DNA of 64,000 nt. Source: an uncultured Rhodobacteraceae bacterium (lineage in GTDB: Bacteria > Pseudomonadota > Alphaproteobacteria > Rhodobacterales > Rhodobacteraceae). The position numbers and the translations under genes are program-made. Under the pieces are notes generated by a model, which did not search any database, had not been told where the DNA came from, and was given only the letters and a program-made list of their open reading frames with translations. The stretch spans positions 9,004 through 73,003 of the forward strand of contig CAKZVL010000049.1 of the NCBI GenBank assembly GCA_937922155.1, written 5' to 3'. Below, piece by piece: positions 7,553 through 26,782 of this stretch; positions within the stretch are counted from its first letter, which is position 1; each line of letters opens with the position of its first letter.

Positions 7553-9358
7553 TCACTCTGTTTTCGGTAAAACATAGGTCCCCGGCGCAGGCCCCAAAAC
7601 CGGATGTGATGGCCCACCTTCCGCACGTGCAGCGATGCGTTTGCCCGATTTTGCCGACAGCCATTTTTCCCATTCCGGCCACCAGCTGCCCTCGTTTTGT
7701 TGGGCATCTTGCTGCCACTCCAGCGGCGCCAGCGTCAGATCTTCATTGCTACGGTATCCGTATTTCACACGGGTCGGCGGGTTGACGATCCCCGCGATAT
7801 GCCCAGACCCCGACAGGATAAACGTCTTATCTTTCGATCCCATCTTTTGAATACCGCGATAGCTGCCTTTCCAGTGGGCAATGTGGTCCGTCTCGCAGGC
7901 AATCGCATAAAGCGGAACGCTTACATCGCTCAAATGCACCAGCGTGTCGCACACCTCAAACCCAGCGCCGTTGGCGAAAGTATCCTGCTGGCAGAGCCCG
8001 CGCAGATATTGCACCGCCATCTTAGCCGGCAGGTTCGTCCCATCCCCGTTCCAATACAGCAGATCAAAGGCCGGCGGCGCCTGCCCCATCATATAGCTTT
8101 TGATCGCAGGCCCATAGATCAGATCATTTGATCGCAGAAAACTAAACGTGCGGGACATATAATACTTGTCCAACACACCTGCCGTCTCCACCTCCGCCTC
8201 GATCCCATCGACGAAATCATCCTCTAGGAACACGCCAACCTCACCGCGGTCAGAAAAATCCGTCATCGTGGTAAAGAACGTCGCGCTGTTCACAGATGTA
8301 TCACCACGCTGCTTCATCAGGGCGAGGGTCAGCGACAGTGTCGTCCCCGCAATGCAATACCCAACCGCGTTCACCTGTTTGACGTCACAAATCTGTTTGA
8401 CCTGTTCAATCGCGGCCAGAAACCCAGACTCCACGTAATCTGTCATCGTCGTGTCGCGATAGCTGCTGTCAGGGTTCACCCACGAGACAACAAACAGCGT
8501 ATAGCCCTGATCCACGATCCATTTGATCAGCGAATTCTTTTCCTTCAGATCAAGAATATAAAACTTGTTGATCCACGGCGGGAACATAATCAGCGGCGTT
8601 TCATACACCATGTCCGTCGTCGGCGTATATTGGATCAATTCGAACAAGTGATTGCGATAAACCACGCTCCCCTTGGTGGTGGCGAGGTTTTCACCAACCT
8701 GAAACGCATCCGCATCGGCCAGCGTGACAACAAGATCGCCGTTGTTCGCCTCCAAATCGCGCACAAGGTTTTCCAGCCCCTTCACAAGGCTTTCACCATC
8801 AGTTTCCGCCGCCAGCGACAAGGCCTCTGGATTTGTCGCCAGAAAATTCGTCGGGCTCAGCATGTCGATGATCTGGCTCGAAAAATACTCCAAACGCGAC
8901 CGCTCTTGCGGCTCCAACCCATCTAGATCGGCCACAGCGGTGCGCATTGCTTCTGCGTTCATCAGATATTGCTGCTTGATAAAGTTGAAATAGGGGTTCG
9001 TATCCCACAACTCATGAGCGAAACGACGATCCTTTGGGCCCTTATCCGCGGGGGATTCAATGCGCCCTTGGACCAGAATATGTTGCGACTCCACGAAATG
9101 TTTGACCGATTTGGACCAAAACCCCAACTGATGCTCCAACAGCTTGGCCGGATTATTCACCATCTCGGCCCAATACGCACTCGCAGCCTTGGCATAAAGG
9201 TCAGGCGAAGGACCGCTCAGGGGCTGCGGCACTTGCCGCCCTTGCTGCATCGCAGAAAGAAGGCGTTGCGTCAGCTCTTCTATTTTACTGAGGTTTTTCT
9301 CAAGTTCCGCAAGGTTTTCACTAGAGATTGCGCCATTTGTGACATCTTTGGTTGTCAT
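7553..9358 (-). CDS. phaC: Class I poly(R)-hydroxyalkanoic acid synthase
   Basis: 601 aa with a lipase-box-like GYCIAG carrying the catalytic Cys, and a typical PhaC N-terminal region. Confidence 0.9.
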   Translation of the reverse strand: MTTKDVTNGAISSENLAELEKNLSKIEELTQRLLSAMQQGRQVPQPLSGPSPDLYAKAASAYWAEMVNNPAKLLEHQLGFWSKSVKHFVESQHILVQGRIESPADKGPKDRRFAHELWDTNPYFNFIKQQYLMNAEAMRTAVADLDGLEPQERSRLEYFSSQIIDMLSPTNFLATNPEALSLAAETDGESLVKGLENLVRDLEANNGDLVVTLADADAFQVGENLATTKGSVVYRNHLFELIQYTPTTDMVYETPLIMFPPWINKFYILDLKEKNSLIKWIVDQGYTLFVVSWVNPDSSYRDTTMTDYVESGFLAAIEQVKQICDVKQVNAVGYCIAGTTLSLTLALMKQRGDTSVNSATFFTTMTDFSDRGEVGVFLEDDFVDGIEAEVETAGVLDKYYMSRTFSFLRSNDLIYGPAIKSYMMGQAPPAFDLLYWNGDGTNLPAKMAVQYLRGLCQQDTFANGAGFEVCDTLVHLSDVSVPLYAIACETDHIAHWKGSYRGIQKMGSKDKTFILSGSGHIAGIVNPPTRVKYGYRSNEDLTLAPLEWQQDAQQNEGSWWPEWEKWLSAKSGKRIAARAEGGPSHPVLGPAPGTYVLPKTE

Positions 9359-9426
9359 ATTAAAATCCTACGCCTACTTTGCAGTTGCAGCATCGGCTTG
9401 GCCCATGCCCCCTCAGGAGTGTTCTA

Positions 9427-10710
9427 ATGAAGTATATGGTAACTTATGACCTGATGGAAACCACGCGAAACACCAATCAGTGGTTGGGTGCGACCGCGCG
9501 GGCCTTCGCAAGCTATCCTGCAATGGCCGCAATCCCTAATCCTGCGATGGATTGGCTCAAAGCATGGGGTGAGGTCACAGAACGCACCTTCGCGCGAATG
9601 GTCGTCAAACCCGATTGGGGTATCCCCTCATTTACCTGCGAGGATGGCAAAGACCACATTGTCGAAATTGAAACGCTGGTGGAACGCCCCTTTGGCGACC
9701 TGATCCATTTCAACGTCCCTGGCCGCAAGGAACGCAAGCGCCGCGTCTTGCTCGTCGCCCCAATGTCCGGCCATTACGCCACATTGCTGCGCAAAACCGT
9801 GATCAGCCTGCTCCCCGATTGCGAAGTCTTCATCACAGATTGGCACAACGCCCGCGACATTCCCGTCAGCAAGGGCAAGTTCGACGTCGAAGATTACACG
9901 CTCTACCTCGTTGATTTCATGAAGGAACTTGGCAGCGACATCCACATCGTGGCCGTCTGCCAACCCGTCCCACTGGCACTGGCCGCAACCGCCTATCTGG
10001 CTGAAGAAGACCCCAGCGCACAGCCGCGATCCCTCACCCTGATTGGCGGCCCAGTTGATCCCGATGCCAACCCGACAGAAGTCACCGACTTTGGCCACTC
10101 CGTCACGATGGGCCAGCTCGAAGAAACGATGATCCAGCGCGTTGGTTTTAAATCCGCAGGCGTCGGGCGCATGGTCTACCCCGGCCTGCTCCAGCTTGCC
10201 TCATTCATCTCTATGAACGGCGAGATGCATTACAACGCCTTCCAAGATCAAATCGTGCGCGCCGCCAAAGGCGAATCCTCCGATCATGACCGCCACAACG
10301 TATTTTATGACGAATACCTCGCCGTGATGGACATGACGGCTGAATTCTACCTCTCCACGGTCGAACGCATCTTCAAAAACCGCGATATCGCGCGCAATGA
10401 ATTTGTCGTCGCAGGCCGCAACGTCGACATCTCCAAAATCACAACTGTGGCCGTAAAAATCGTCGAAGGCGAAAACGACGACATCTCCGCCCCCGGTCAA
10501 TGTCTCGCCGCCTTGGATTTGCTCACCGGCCTGCCCGACAGCAAAAAGGCAGCGCACCTCGAACCCGGCGCTGGCCACTACGGCATTTTCGCTGGGAAAA
10601 GCTGGCGCAACAACATCCGCCCTCTGGTGCTTAACTTCATCGACGCAAATTCCGCCGCCCCTAGGGCTGCAAAATCCGGTAAGTCCGGCAAAGTCGTCGC
10701 AATGAAATAA
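9427..10710 (+). CDS. phaZ: Intracellular polyhydroxyalkanoate depolymerase
   Basis: About 427 aa, divergent from phaC, with length and sequence character typical of intracellular PhaZ. The start is taken at MKYMVTYD. Confidence 0.75.
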   Translation: MKYMVTYDLMETTRNTNQWLGATARAFASYPAMAAIPNPAMDWLKAWGEVTERTFARMVVKPDWGIPSFTCEDGKDHIVEIETLVERPFGDLIHFNVPGRKERKRRVLLVAPMSGHYATLLRKTVISLLPDCEVFITDWHNARDIPVSKGKFDVEDYTLYLVDFMKELGSDIHIVAVCQPVPLALAATAYLAEEDPSAQPRSLTLIGGPVDPDANPTEVTDFGHSVTMGQLEETMIQRVGFKSAGVGRMVYPGLLQLASFISMNGEMHYNAFQDQIVRAAKGESSDHDRHNVFYDEYLAVMDMTAEFYLSTVERIFKNRDIARNEFVVAGRNVDISKITTVAVKIVEGENDDISAPGQCLAALDLLTGLPDSKKAAHLEPGAGHYGIFAGKSWRNNIRPLVLNFIDANSAAPRAAKSGKSGKVVAMK

Positions 10711-11015
10711 GCGCAGCCTGCCCAAGGCTGAGGCGAACAGGTCGCACTTTACAGTTGAATACAGGTTTTGCCGTGCCAAGCTGGTCACCGGTTCGCGCAC
10801 AACACCGCCAAATTCCGCACCGCATCGCGACTCAATCCTAAAGAGTGGCCGAGCCCCAAACACACGCCTTTCCAGAAATGACGGGCTATCGGGACTCCAA
10901 CCCCCTGATTTCTTGAGATTCTAAACACTTTCTGAACGGCCTTGACTGTGGCACTATGGCAACTGTTAGACGGTATTCTGTTATTTTTTTGAACGTATTT
11001 TTGTGGAGAAAACTA

Positions 11016-11513
11016 ATGAACTTAAAAAGCCTGCTCATCGCCAGCGTCTTTGTCGGCGCGTCCTCACTGGGGGCGTCTGCTGCGACCATTAATCCGGATG
11101 ACTTTATGTTCGATGGAAAAGTCACGAGCGGCAACTGTCCTTTTGGCGGAAGCACCTGCATCCTTTTACCGAACAATGGCACGGCTGAACTCACCTATAG
11201 CGGTGGTGTTTTTGACCTTGTTAGCTTCGAATATGCCCTGCAAGGTTCGGGTTCCGAGGTGACGGCAACATCCGACTTGGGCGATGTTTTTGTCAGCCAA
11301 CCGCTCCAAGGAAATAATCCAGACAACACGGCTATTGTTAACTGGACTGGGGTAACGACAATCAATTTCGAAAGCACTGGCAACGGCTCCGTGCGCATCG
11401 GTGTTATTGATGGTGTCGTACAGATGACAGCCGTACCGCTGCCAGCTGGCCTGCCGCTGATGCTCGTCGGACTTGGCGCACTTGGTATCGCCAAGCGTCG
11501 CAAGGCGTCCTAA
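11016..11513 (+). CDS. Secreted protein with a VPLPA-CTERM sorting tag
   Basis: Signal peptide MNLKSLLIASVFVGASSLGASA with GGAG upstream of the ATG at 11016. The C-terminus VPLPAGLPLMLVGLGALGIAKRRKAS has the motif, a TM helix and a basic tail. Confidence 0.75.
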   Translation: MNLKSLLIASVFVGASSLGASAATINPDDFMFDGKVTSGNCPFGGSTCILLPNNGTAELTYSGGVFDLVSFEYALQGSGSEVTATSDLGDVFVSQPLQGNNPDNTAIVNWTGVTTINFESTGNGSVRIGVIDGVVQMTAVPLPAGLPLMLVGLGALGIAKRRKAS

Positions 11514-11533
11514 CGAAGCGAAACAAAGATCAT

Positions 11534-11570
11534 CCAAGGATCGGCACCCCTCGCCGATCCTTGGCGTTTT
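11534..11570 (+). terminator. Rho-independent terminator after the first VPLPA-CTERM gene
   Basis: A 12-bp stem (CCAAGGATCGGC / GCCGATCCTTGG) followed by CGTTTT. Confidence 0.7.
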
Positions 11571-11710
11571 GAATATCAGCGGCGAATCCCAACGCACCTT
11601 TTCTGGCGATTCTCCTAGGCGAACGCGAAATCGCCTAAAAAACATACGTTTACCAACCGTTAACCATGATCGCCCGCGCGCAGCCTTAACCAGGCGTTCT
11701 GCGTAGGCAC

Positions 11711-11750
11711 GGTGTACCGATTGTGTACGCAGTGTGTACCGGCTGTGACA
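11711..11750 (+). promoter_or_regulatory. Array of four direct heptamers at exact 11-bp phasing (GGTGTAC/TGTGTAC/TGTGTAC/TGTGACA)
   Basis: The heptamers start at 11711, 11722, 11733 and 11744. An AAAATA -10-like hexamer lies about 14 nt downstream. A homologous array occurs at 26055-26094. Confidence 0.6.
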
Positions 11751-11975
11751 CTGAATTTCCCAACAAAATAACGCGTAAACCCTTGCGTCTGACACCACAG
11801 CCAAAATGCCTGCATCCATCCAGCGCACGCACGCCCCACCCCATTAACAAAGCGCACGCGCAATCACAGGGTTTCACACACCCGTGCAACACGCGCCTGT
11901 GTCTTTCCTGTGATCGGCTCATGACGTTACGCAAGGGGACCACCAAAACCGGTGTGTTCTTTTACGGAGTTAAAC

Positions 11976-12779
11976 ATGTCCAACAGATCAAAAATCGCAG
12001 GCCTAATGGCCGCAACAACCATGCTGGTCGCGGGTGCGGCGAATGCTGCAACGCTGTCCGTCAGCATCACAAACGAACAACCTGCAGACGGGGTCTTTCT
12101 AACACCTCTGGCATCCATCTTCCACGATGGCAATTTCGACCTCTTCAACGCTGGCGAAACCGCCTCCCAAGTGGTTGAAGGCCTCGCCGAAGAAGGCGCC
12201 GCAGGCCCAGTTGTGGCAGCCGCCCAAGCGGCAGGTCATCAAGGTGGCGTTGTCTTTGGAACAGGCGGTTTTGGTTCCGCACCAGGTCAACCACCTCTGA
12301 TTGATCCAATGGAAACAGCCTCCGCCCTGTTCAACGTTGATTTCGGCGCGACGGACGATCTCTACTTCTCGTTCATGTCGATGATCCTACCAACAAACGA
12401 TGCATTCATCGGCAACGACAACCCAACCGCCTATCAAATCGTAGACAGCGGCATCTTCCAAGGCACGTCCATCAGCGTCTACACAAACGATGCATGGGAT
12501 GCCGGCACCGAGGAAAATAACTTCCAAGGCTTGCCCTTCAGCCCCAACGGCGGTGACGCAACCGACACCAACGGTGTGATCGCGCGCCTTGGCAACCTGC
12601 TGTTCGTCGACGGCCAAACACGCGGTGCCGAATTCGGCCCAGTTGGCCCTGCTGGCCTCGGCGATGCGACATTGATCGCAACCATCGAAGTTGCAGCCGT
12701 TCCGCTGCCAGCTGGCTTGCCGCTGATGCTCGCAGGACTTGGCGCATTTGGCATCGCTAAGCGCCGCAAAAAGGCATAA
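11976..12779 (+). CDS. Spondin_N-like secreted protein with a VPLPA-CTERM sorting tag
   Basis: Signal peptide ending AANA, then the SMILPTNDAFIGN region typical of bacterial spondin-N homologs. C-terminus is VPLPAGLPLMLAGLGAFGIAKRRKKA, and GGAG precedes the ATG at 11976. Confidence 0.75.
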   Translation: MSNRSKIAGLMAATTMLVAGAANAATLSVSITNEQPADGVFLTPLASIFHDGNFDLFNAGETASQVVEGLAEEGAAGPVVAAAQAAGHQGGVVFGTGGFGSAPGQPPLIDPMETASALFNVDFGATDDLYFSFMSMILPTNDAFIGNDNPTAYQIVDSGIFQGTSISVYTNDAWDAGTEENNFQGLPFSPNGGDATDTNGVIARLGNLLFVDGQTRGAEFGPVGPAGLGDATLIATIEVAAVPLPAGLPLMLAGLGAFGIAKRRKKA

Positions 12780-22325: not shown

Positions 22326-23021
22326 CTAAGGCAGTTGCGCCGCGCCCAGAATTTCGCCGTGATGACCGTTCTGAACAATCACCGCCACAGCCTCCGGTCC
22401 TTCAACAGCAGCATCAATCGACAACGTATCAGACACATCCCACGTGCCAATCTCCTCCCAAGAGGTGACGACATTGATATACTTGATTGTCTTTCCCGCG
22501 TTTTCGCCACGTCGGATATCGCGCTCAATCTCAGGAATGAACCGCACGATCTGCACCACCGCATCGCCCGACACCCCTTGCGACGTCGCTTCGATCTTTA
22601 GGACATCACCGTCGCGTTCCAATGTAACGCTCACCTGATCTTCGGCCTGCGCATGCGCCTGAAGCTGGTCCATCACTTGCATAGGCCGTGATCCAATCAC
22701 GTGATCCTTGCCACCAATAACCATCTGCGGCGTATAAACCGTCCGCGCGCCTGCCTCTTGCGCATATCCATGTTGACGCTCTGTGTATGCAGGATCGGCT
22801 AGATCATCTTTCCAGCCCAAGTAATCCCAATAATCCACATGCAGCGACAGCGCGATAACGTCCTCCATCTCGACCAGATCTTCCATCATCGCATCCGCAG
22901 GCGGACAGCTTGAACAGCCTTGCGATGTATAAAGTTCCAACACCGTTGGGCTCGCACCACCGATAGAGGGCGCAATCAACATGGCTGCTGAAAACGCAGC
23001 AGTGCATAAGGTGTGGCGCAT
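22326..23021 (-). CDS. DUF1223 family secreted thioredoxin-like protein
   Basis: A signal peptide followed by the LYTSQGCSSCPPAD motif. Confidence 0.7.
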   Translation of the reverse strand: MRHTLCTAAFSAAMLIAPSIGGASPTVLELYTSQGCSSCPPADAMMEDLVEMEDVIALSLHVDYWDYLGWKDDLADPAYTERQHGYAQEAGARTVYTPQMVIGGKDHVIGSRPMQVMDQLQAHAQAEDQVSVTLERDGDVLKIEATSQGVSGDAVVQIVRFIPEIERDIRRGENAGKTIKYINVVTSWEEIGTWDVSDTLSIDAAVEGPEAVAVIVQNGHHGEILGAAQLP

Positions 23022-23223
23022 GGAGTTTCCTTCGTCGTGTATTGGCTACAAAGGATACTTAGAACAGGTCGACTGTAATAACCAATCAATGAATTGCGAT
23101 TATGGAGTGAAACGGATAAATTTGCAATTGTATGCCATTGTATGCAGAAAAAGCTTGAAAGCGCCCGCGCCTTGGTGCACAAGCCGCCATAACGCCACCA
23201 TTTCCAATCAGAAAGGGATCGCC

Positions 23224-25914
<2,691 letters not shown>

Positions 25915-25965: not shown

Positions 25966-26054
25966 GCTGCGTTTAACCCAAAATTAGTCCATTCCTTAAA
26001 ATCAGGTTAACCGGGGCGCCGACCGCTGCGTTAATCCCCAATTTCGCCGATTTC

Positions 26055-26094
26055 CGTGTACCAACTGTGTACAGCTTGTGTACGGCCTGTGACT
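26055..26094 (+). promoter_or_regulatory. Second copy of the four-heptamer 11-bp phased array (CGTGTAC/TGTGTAC/TGTGTAC/TGTGACT)
   Basis: The heptamers start at 26055, 26066, 26077 and 26088. TATAAA lies 12 nt downstream. The array sits between the convergent genes acnA and ccmG. Confidence 0.6.
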
Positions 26095-26233
26095 CTCTCA
26101 AACCCCTATAAACAAGGGGCTTAACCCTGATACCCCAAAATCAAACACGAAACGTACACACAACCGTTGCGCACACGCCCTCGGCGCGCTGCACGCAACG
26201 GCATTTCACACATCTTTCATGTTATAAAAATCT

Positions 26234-26782
26234 CTAAGGCGCGCTTTTCGCACCCTCTAACATCGGCACAAACCGCTGCTCATAATCCGACCCAACCAGC
26301 GGCCCGATGAACCTGTTCAGAATGGTCCCATCCGCCCCAACGATAAACGTCTCCGGCGGCGCAGTGACGCCCCAGTCAATGGCAAACCCACCGCGCGGAT
26401 CAAAGCTGGTCGCGATAAACGGATTGCCATCCTCGCGCAGGTATTGCTCTGCATTGGCCTCAATATCGCGAAAGTTCGCACCAACGATCCTGTACCCCTG
26501 ATCCTCCAGCGACAACAACGTTGGATGCTCCGCCCGGCACGGCGGACACCAGCTGGCCCAGAAATTCACGATTGTAATCTCGCCCGCGTCAAACAACGCA
26601 GGATCAAACGCCTCTGTGCCCGGAACCGCCTGCGTCGGCAATCCCGGTGCCGCCTGACCAATCAGGGCCGAGGGCAGCTCGCCCGGATTGTCCCGCATCA
26701 TGCCCGCAAAAAACAACCCGGCCATGCCTGCAAACAGGATCGGTGGGATCAACAGCATTGGCGAAATCTTACCCATTTTCAA
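26234..26782 (-). CDS. ccmG: Thiol:disulfide oxidoreductase CcmG/DsbE (HelX)
   Basis: An N-terminal membrane anchor, the WASWCPPCRAEHP thioredoxin motif, and its position after ccmD. Confidence 0.85.
   Translation of the reverse strand: MKMGKISPMLLIPPILFAGMAGLFFAGMMRDNPGELPSALIGQAAPGLPTQAVPGTEAFDPALFDAGEITIVNFWASWCPPCRAEHPTLLSLEDQGYRIVGANFRDIEANAEQYLREDGNPFIATSFDPRGGFAIDWGVTAPPETFIVGADGTILNRFIGPLVGSDYEQRFVPMLEGAKSAP

Follow-up and report, generated by a model that had tools for sequence, protein, structure and literature searches.

Phased GTGTAC arrays between the genes of Rhodobacterales: a family of intergenic sites with replication-set orientation

Replication fork traps, which like other polar sites of chromosomes are known from few lineages, have been described only in Tus-bearing groups (Enterobacteriales, Pseudoalteromonas, and Aeromonadales) and, with RTP, in some Bacillus; the majority of bacteria are believed to be without them (PMC10331603). 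In the RTP-Ter complex, four monomers are bound on adjacent half-sites (PMC10331603). The subject of the present text is a repeat array, consisting of GTGTAC hexamers arranged head to tail with an 11-bp period, which occurs twice in a 64,000-nucleotide stretch of DNA (hereafter the window) from an uncultured Rhodobacteraceae bacterium (GenBank assembly GCA_937922155.1, contig CAKZVL010000049.1, positions 9,004 to 73,003 of the forward strand). Both Ter cores hold a TGTA(A)C-like sequence, present on the lagging strand for permissive forks, a likeness that serves as a lead only. The Pho box has the consensus CTGTCAT with an A/T-rich 4-bp spacer, and its half-site resembles CTGTGAC, the terminal unit of the arrays. 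The sites of P4-type primase-helicases and the R1 parC/ParR system also lend themselves to comparison. On such analogies, the array appears most like Ter sites in polarity, number, and lineage restriction, and most like iterons, Pho boxes, or parC in its presumed phased cooperative binding.

Copy 1 of the array reads GGTGTAC-cgat-TGTGTAC-gcag-TGTGTAC-cggc-TGTGACA, and copy 2 reads GTGTAC-caact-GTGTAC-agctt-GTGTAC-ggcct-GTGAC. The pattern GTGTAC-N5-GTGTAC-N5-GTGTAC-N5-GTGAC is common to positions 11712-11749 and 26056-26093 (Table 1). An initial interpretation made from the letters of the window alone (the sequence-only reading) had pointed to four phased heptamers in copy 1; these do start at 11711, 11722, 11733, and 11744, exactly 11 bp apart, and a degenerate unit, GCGTAG (11701-11706), precedes them in the same phase. 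The second array, which was anticipated near 26005-26215, is present as copy 2. Three phased hexamers (GTGTAC-N5-GTGTAC-N5-GTGTAC) were found at these two sites only in 64 kb, while dinucleotide shuffles gave a mean of 0.00 and a maximum of 0. Relaxed scans of the 64-kb window, in which mismatches or GTGCAC units were allowed, revealed no further or degenerate copy, and their reversed-sequence controls gave 0 matches.

An exact-pattern scan, using one genome per species, returned at least 118 stretches; the counts of array loci given below, apart from those for gltD in metagenomes, refer to arrays among the matches listed. About 87 of these are from Rhodobacteraceae/Paracoccaceae, often with several arrays per genome, and the genera include Paracoccus, Gemmobacter, Nioella, Yoonia, Planktomarina, Roseovarius, Roseicyclus, Litoreibacter, Jannaschia, Palleronia, and others. 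The remaining matches are simple tandem repeats in unrelated phyla. In the sequence logo, five units are in phase, [tGCAC]-N5-GTGTAC-GGGtT-GTGTAC-rGGtT-GTGTAC-GcgtT-GTGC-CCCC, and about 10 of every 11 positions are informative. Individual arrays contain three to five GTGYAC units, with natural variation between GTGTAC and GTGCAC, and often end in GTGAC. The flanks of the 87 loci (632 kb) held two or three extra arrays, or about one per 200-300 kb, which extrapolates to very roughly 10-20 arrays per genome. No description of a GTGTAC array family was found in Rfam or in the searchable open-access literature, nothing relevant on polar repeats in Rhodobacterales was found in open-access text, and BLAST searches of a plasmid collection with the module and with the consensus array gave no match. 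From these comparisons, the array is a member of a dispersed, previously undescribed intergenic family that extends across the Rhodobacterales. The inverted array pairs seen in L001 and L057 were dismissed as artefacts of the GTAC palindrome.

The arrays were found in 28 convergent, 38 tandem, and 8 divergent gaps; in the tandem contexts, 23 are co-oriented with the genes and 15 are in the opposite orientation. The preference for gene 3' ends and convergent gaps is the reverse of the placement of promoter operators. Array orientation is set by chromosome replication and not by the neighbouring genes. When GC skew was computed over ~8 kb of flanking sequence, on the strand that carries GTGTAC, 67 of 80 loci had a negative value (mean -0.048; p=6e-10). 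When the coding-strand effect was separated (coding-strand term +0.011), the skew was negative in 41 of 51 loci, with a mean of -0.052, and with independent genomic contexts counted once it was negative in 45 of 53 (p=2e-7). On the complete chromosome of Nioella (4.14 Mb), arrays are located at 694 and 1061 kb on the minus strand and at 2724 and 3499 kb on the plus strand; four of the five arrays fit two replichores, the array at 3341 kb being the exception. Orientation fixed to replication and switching between replichores, as in Ter sites, is what these figures show. Arrays on one contig are always co-oriented (the window, L036, L056, and L043/L075). In the window, the plus strand is rich in C in each 8-kb bin (GC skew -0.05 to -0.15) and both arrays read in the plus direction; the whole window therefore lies in one replichore, in which plus is the lagging strand. 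AT skew stays positive over all 64 kb. As the leading strand is, by general rule, the G-rich one, GTGTAC is on the lagging strand and, read 5' to 3', points back to the origin. The orientation of the array, which is itself G-rich, therefore opposes the compositional trend. Enrichment of head-on genes is weak, with 55-59 % of coding bases on the array strand as against 55 % for non-adjacent genes. KOPS (FtsK-orienting polar sequences) and Chi share with the arrays a strand bias that switches with the replichore. These architecture-imparting or polar oligomers are 8-mers that occur hundreds to thousands of times and mostly within genes, whereas the arrays are ~55-bp composites that are rare and intergenic.

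The closest relatives available are metagenomic contigs in which the neighbouring proteins are 87 % (the spondin-like protein, L244) and 89 % (CcmG, L245) identical to those of the window, and both window arrays occupy the same positions there. The hexamers of copy 1 are conserved at 22 of 23 positions in L244 and those of copy 2 at 22 of 23 in L245, compared with 8 of 15 and 9 of 15 spacer positions, respectively; adjacent non-box sequence at the two orthologous loci is 15-52 % identical. Judged by this alignment, there is a phylogenetic footprint on the hexamers, which are under purifying selection. The sequence-only reading had argued for a duplicated functional unit instead of chance similarity, and the retention of the array in relatives bears it out, as does the presence of arrays throughout Rhodobacteraceae/Paracoccaceae. 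Sharing can also be deeper: in six genera an array follows the stop codon of gltD at a distance of 20-24 nt, and about 20 of 80 metagenome gltD loci, sampled independently of the motif, carry a phased array after the stop codon. In the gltD loci L126, L134-L137, and L157, an inverted pair, such as GGGCATTTGTACAA...TTGGTACAAATGCCC, takes the place of the direct-repeat array after the stop codon. The site after gltD is perhaps a hotspot at which different kinds of GTAC-containing element occur.

The explanation that is tentatively preferred here, at rather less than an even chance, is that the array would be a DNA docking platform for a candidate lineage-specific protein, giving a polar complex relevant to replication. 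The protein would bind cooperatively and head to tail on a single face of the helix, a mode of binding for which asymmetric units phased at exactly one turn are the expected geometry, and it would read about 10 of every 11 bp. The bound array would be a structurally polar nucleoprotein complex. In one version, this complex would act in a Ter-like manner as a direction-dependent barrier or marker for DNA-tracking machines, such that normal forks pass while forks or RNA polymerases from the other side are blocked. In another version, it would act as a tight roadblock, tolerated only where its orientation lets replication proceed. At 3' ends, the complex would be shielded from transcription or, alternatively, could stop it. 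Ter sites (Tus-Ter and RTP-Ter) and the arrays are alike in that both are dispersed, occupy intergenic or low-transcription positions, and number in the order of ten per chromosome; both are also asymmetric and replichore-oriented, with normal forks meeting one face. Ter sites are lineage-restricted and have a co-evolving protein; the arrays are likewise lineage-restricted, and their protein is putative. The stronger proposal, that the arrays constitute a third polar replication barrier, similar to a fork trap, which arose independently and is confined to Rhodobacterales, is considered unlikely. The protein would in that case polymerise head to tail on the three to five phased GTGYAC units; forks from the origin side would pass, and forks (perhaps also RNA polymerase) from the other side would stop.

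Several points weigh against the docking platform and have to be set beside the evidence given above. We infer the mechanism from geometry and statistics. The gene contexts come from crude open reading frame (ORF) calls based on GC3 (GC content at third codon positions), and the G-rich strand is assumed to be the leading one in these particular genomes. Orientation bias can also stem from replication-coupled insertion or from orientation-dependent instability of repeats, without any function. Some arrays lie inside operons just 5' of the essential genes lpd and rplQ, where a strong roadblock would be costly. Arrays are absent from the orthologous sites next to a spondin orthologue of 66 % identity (L120) and CcmG orthologues of 68-80 % identity; in Loktanella sp., of which CcmG is 68 % identical, the same convergent acnA-ccmG arrangement is without an array. 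Individual array sites therefore last for some time and are in some cases deeply shared, yet are also subject to turnover. Ter sites differ from the arrays in being single 23-30-bp sites clustered round the terminus in two opposed groups, where the arrays have three to five identical tandem units. Ter has a dedicated terminator protein, which halts forks coming from one side and whose gene is autoregulated through one of the sites; here, neither a terminator protein nor a candidate gene with an array in its promoter was found, and no recurrent DNA-binding gene was present among the genes with a 5' end beside an array.

Copy 1 is located 3' of the terminator (11534-11570) of a VPLPA-CTERM gene and 226 bp 5' of the ATG of a Spondin_N/VPLPA-CTERM gene. 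Two mechanical ORFs overlap the gap; the view that it holds no credible ORF was upheld by an independent gene call on the identical contig L119, which places no gene between the two VPLPA-CTERM genes. The sequence-only reading had taken copy 1 for an OmpR/PhoB-type operator of the spondin-like gene, with an AAAATA hexamer as -10. That proposal is a special case of a wider one, to which a low probability is accorded: that the arrays are operators of a global transcription factor, an OmpR/PhoB- or CtrA-like winged-helix response regulator, acting on adjacent genes, possibly those of central carbon metabolism and the tricarboxylic acid (TCA) cycle. The geometric part of the operator proposal held. 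The arrays, like Pho boxes and other OmpR/PhoB sites, are direct repeats with an 11-bp period that run head to tail on one helix face, each window copy having four tandem 7+4 units at 11-bp spacing; this tandem geometry is typical of the OmpR/PhoB family, and a winged-helix binder of the array is possible. A global regulator would also suit the arrays found 26-130 bp 5' of co-oriented genes, the CtrA-half-site-like GTTAAC boxes beside arrays, and the TCA/2-oxoglutarate genes that adjoin arrays in 5 of 53 contexts, where ~0.5 would be expected (counted post hoc). The latter encode aconitase (acnA), NADP-isocitrate dehydrogenase (icd), class II fumarase (fumC), dihydrolipoyl dehydrogenase (lpd), and glutamate synthase (gltD/gltB); rplQ, lepB, and asd are among the other neighbours.

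The promoter part of the operator proposal failed. A promoter scan found no sigma-70-like promoter in 11400-12100, around and downstream of copy 1, which leaves AAAATA without support as a -10. Copy 2 is located between the convergent 3' ends of acnA (22981-25914, plus strand; aconitase) and ccmG (26234-26782, minus strand; a CcmG/DsbE-type redoxin), with the acnA terminator 5' of it, and there is therefore no downstream protein gene for it to regulate. Another 27 arrays are also between convergent 3' ends, whereas divergent promoter gaps are depleted (28 convergent versus 8 divergent). Where an array is only 26-39 bp from an ATG, a promoter would not fit in between; orientation goes with the replication strand (67 of 80 loci) and not with gene direction (23 versus 15); and the 66 %-identical spondin orthologue does without an upstream array. 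In our reading, the array is not an operator dedicated to the spondin-like gene. Neither does it answer to the described regulators in sequence: the logo, T-GTGTAC-GGG, differs from the Pho-box consensus in its GTGYAC units and in spacers that are G-rich instead of A/T-rich. Pho boxes are found at the promoter -35 or replace it, with the -10 some 10 bp further on, and are next to phosphate-regulon genes, and the arrays are at neither, having TCA, housekeeping, and other genes as neighbours; a replication-set orientation further distinguishes the arrays from Pho and OmpR/PhoB sites. The TTAA-N7-TTAA(C) pair of CtrA is not formed by the boxes that flank the arrays, which are single GTTAAC palindromes 24-26 bp apart, one of them reading TTAACCAT.

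Placement at 3' ends, in convergent gaps, and between cistrons is also the distribution of repetitive extragenic palindromic (REP) sequences. In a REP-like role, neighbouring units would form hairpins that stabilise or terminate transcripts, or would bind gyrase-like factors at 3' ends; this is quite unlikely. TGTGTACR is self-complementary as RNA through G.U pairs, interchange of GTGTAC and GTGCAC preserves the pairing on the G/T strand, and folding of 89 family instances on both strands gave a mean z of about -1.1 on the plus strand, a signal that is not consistent. The arrays of the window fold no better than shuffles (z +0.36, +0.43, and -0.72), and the z of -2.4 on the copy-2 minus strand belongs to a small neighbouring hairpin and not to the array. 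The mRNA from the conserved gltD site is antisense to the array and carries the non-pairing strand. The spacers, which would be the loops, are constrained. Rfam covariance models gave 0 hits in the window at the gathering threshold, and at E<=10 only terminator look-alikes at the acnA terminator. An element that acts at the DNA level and is read by a protein would be the better reading, because there is no Rfam match, the folds resemble those of shuffles, and orientation to transcription is 23 versus 15. REP sequences and bacterial interspersed mosaic elements (BIMEs) resemble the arrays in being extragenic, at 3' ends, in convergent gaps, and inside operons, and in having family-specific sequences and concerted evolution. 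They differ in that REP sequences are palindromic hairpins present in hundreds of copies, whereas the arrays are direct repeats without a significant fold and number ~10-20 per genome. Membership of the REP/BIME class was rejected for the direct repeats, for array folds of z +0.36 to -0.72, and for the ~1 extra array per 200-300 kb. A G-quadruplex would suit the G5 spacers of Nioella and not the window or many other genomes. A Rho utilisation (rut) site on the C-rich complementary strand was set aside since orientation to transcription is unbiased and the spacers in the window are not G-rich.

The spacers are characteristic of the genome. Their identity is 0.76 within a genome and 0.47 between genomes, a difference reached in 0 of 2000 label permutations; GGGGG/AGGGG, for instance, is found in Nioella and GGGTT/AGGTT in several other genomes. 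In the close relative, the arrays of two unrelated loci (L244, 1-290, and L245, 1225-1560) are identical over 49 nt and share a GTGTAT variant of unit 1, while the two arrays of the window differ at a dozen positions in spacers and immediate flanks. The 49-nt identity suggests gene conversion or another process that homogenises dispersed arrays. Genome-specific spacers point to a trans-acting reader that contacts the whole 11-bp unit, to mutual conversion of the copies, or to both. They could also, together with the 49-nt identity, be signs of recent copying of a selfish miniature element that spreads by single-strand, replication-coupled insertion, with the strand bias as the signature of insertion. 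The ~84 % orientation bias resembles that of lagging-strand-targeting elements, and sites turn over between genera. Such an element is highly improbable. No terminal inverted repeats, target-site duplications, or hairpin ends were found at either window copy, the first two of which findings also led to the rejection of a miniature inverted-repeat transposable element or transposon end. The shared sequence ends with the ~55-bp array, no transposase was found nearby, and copy number is low. Finally, the occurrence of arrays at the same orthologous positions amid decayed flanks argues for retention and not for reinsertion.

Iterons and 11-bp centromere repeats are comparable to the arrays in having four to five tandem repeats, one per helical turn, with candidate cooperative binding. 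Iterons have a sequence that co-evolves with their protein, and a look-alike GTGYAC array is present beside a phage primase gene in L201. It is very unlikely that the arrays are relics or domesticated iterons of replication or packaging sites of phages, plasmids, or integrative elements. Viral contigs do carry many 11-bp GTGYAC arrays: that of L201 (4522-4560) directly follows a DNA primase gene (phrog_1156), and arrays of the L220 type adjoin HNH and small-terminase-like genes. The phage family GGTGTACTAGAGGTGCACTAAAGGTGTAC was observed beside HNH-endonuclease and small-terminase-like genes in L220 (8206-8244) and in ~10 similar contigs. The GTGYAC arrays of phages and prophages are probably origin or packaging sites. 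Other phyla have families of their own, which also suits an iteron ancestry: multi-copy 11-bp GTGTAC-containing tandem repeats were observed in L020, L063, and L106, all from one Verrucomicrobiota metagenome-assembled genome (MAG), and likewise in L044, L093, L108, and L116 from Prolixibacteraceae/Bacteroidia. Repeats in unrelated phyla include GGTGTACCTCC with inverted partner arrays, CTTGTGTGTAC, and GTGTACAGTAA in six to eight copies. Iterons, in contrast, occur once per replicon beside rep or par genes and an AT-rich unwinding region, whereas the arrays are dispersed among chromosomal housekeeping genes. The arrays of the window have VPLPA-CTERM proteins, an M24 peptidase, aconitase, and CcmG as neighbours; no adjacent initiator or primase gene and no AT-rich unwinding element was found there, and in both the window and the Rhodobacterales loci, the genes next to arrays are housekeeping genes, with none for replication, integration, or packaging. 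The arrays occupy orthologous core-genome positions across genera and have a replication-linked polarity, no match came from the plasmid collection, and the trend is already that arrays do not co-occur with mobile-element genes.

Among other candidates, the DnaA box, the alphaproteobacterial LexA box (GTTC-N7-GTTC), and the sites of NtrC, PpsR, and marbox type were rejected because consensus or neighbours do not fit. A packaging site of a gene transfer agent (GTA) was also set aside; a study of GTA packaging in D. shibae reported no motif at its peaks (PMC5786225). Against each of the described classes, the array fails some testable defining feature: promoter placement, the Pho consensus, TTAA-N7-TTAA, a hairpin, terminal inverted repeats and target-site duplications, or an initiator gene. 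It would be best filed among the polar or phased protein-binding sites of chromosomes, with a putative function.

Short boxes accompany the arrays. Both window copies contain GTTAACC, TTAA, TAAACCC/TTAACCC..CCAAAAT, and TTTCACACA, as had been noted from the letters alone. The accompanying claim that regions of ~230 nt align was borne out in part. The ordered boxes are real, being enriched next to arrays and conserved in orthologues; outside the 38-bp array, the similarity of the two regions in local alignment is no better than that of shuffles, 226 of 500 of which score as well upstream and 52 of 500 downstream. GTTAAC-type boxes are present at -65..-15 in 27 of 87 Rhodobacterales arrays (p=8e-25) and at +45..+95 in 17 of 87 (p=2e-12), with a background of 2 % per 50-bp window. 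The two proximal boxes upstream of copy 2 are kept in L245, where the intervening sequence has diverged. At the orthologous loci of close relatives, conservation extends to the boxes and to a block, CACACA(A/C)CCGT(T)GC. Copy 2 is followed by CGTACACACAACCGTTGCGC, which includes one inverted GTGTAC-like unit (minus strand) and the motif CCGTTGCG; the 60 nt that follow are only 15 % identical to L245. The sequence CAAACCGTTGCG is found after the arrays of L064, L070, and L082 on the same strand at +104..+118, and in copy 2 at +106. An 8-bp hairpin can be drawn in the window between CCGTTGCG (26164-26171) and CGCAACGG (26194-26201); the 3' arm, CGCAACGG, is not conserved in the relative. Downstream of copy 1, a block at 11864-11920 contains an 8-bp inverted repeat, ATCACAGG...CCTGTGAT, and has a weak paralogous match to 26157-26180, as the counterpart of the CCGTTGCG block of copy 2; the 88 nt that precede it are only 36 % identical to L244. 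This block may be the promoter, operator, or leader of the spondin-like gene itself, separate from the array. The array is thus at the centre of a looser composite element that a subset of the genomes possesses. A palindrome, CCGGAWTCCGG, which often contains a GANTC (CcrM-type) site, was observed after the array in L030, L036, L043, L075, and L010 (Paracoccaceae MAG A1.bin.17 and strain IMCC34051).

Table 1 Features of the two array regions of the window, and array loci next to TCA/2-oxoglutarate genes
Feature	Position	Strand	Remarks
Array copy 1	11701..11749	+	GTGTAC at 11712, 11723, 11734; terminal GTGAC at 11745; 11-bp phase
Array copy 2	26056..26093	+	GTGTAC at 26056, 26067, 26078; GTGAC at 26089; 11-bp phase
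GTTAACC box, reads TTAACCAT	11659..11665		53 bp before the first exact unit of copy 1
TTAACC box	11686..11691		26 bp before the first exact unit of copy 1
Three TTAAC-type boxes 5' of copy 2	25973..26035		TTAACC 25973, GTTAACC 26006, GTTAAT 26030
Downstream TTAACC box	26121..26126		+65 from the start of array copy 2; conserved in L245
Block ATCACAGG...CACACACCCGTGCAACACGCGCC...CCTGTGAT	11864..11920	+	48/57 identical to L244
Block CGTACACACAACCGTTGCGC	26153..26173	+	20/21 identical to L245
TCA/2-oxoglutarate neighbour loci	window 22981-25914; L055, L056, L074, L060, L077, L110, L006, L038, L071, L073, L101, L114

In the wider surroundings of copy 1, a polyhydroxyalkanoate synthase gene (PhaC_N, minus strand) adjoins a polyhydroxybutyrate depolymerase gene (plus strand) at 7553-10710. 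At 10956-12779, two secreted proteins are encoded in tandem, both with a VPLPAGLPLML...KRRK (VPLPA-CTERM) sorting signal and the second with Spondin_N.

The array family would provide a handle, in the form of a 55-bp bait with a clear consensus, on what may be a new chromosome-organising or fork- or transcription-blocking protein in Rhodobacterales, an abundant marine group. It raises the questions of how asymmetric protein arrays would coexist with replication and why the spacers of one genome evolve in concert. If the binder turned out to be an ordinary regulator, there would still be the strand polarity and the 3'-end placement to explain. Rhodobacterales are known for multipartite genomes and for over-replication of chromosomes, and a fork trap, if it were to exist, could matter in such a group.

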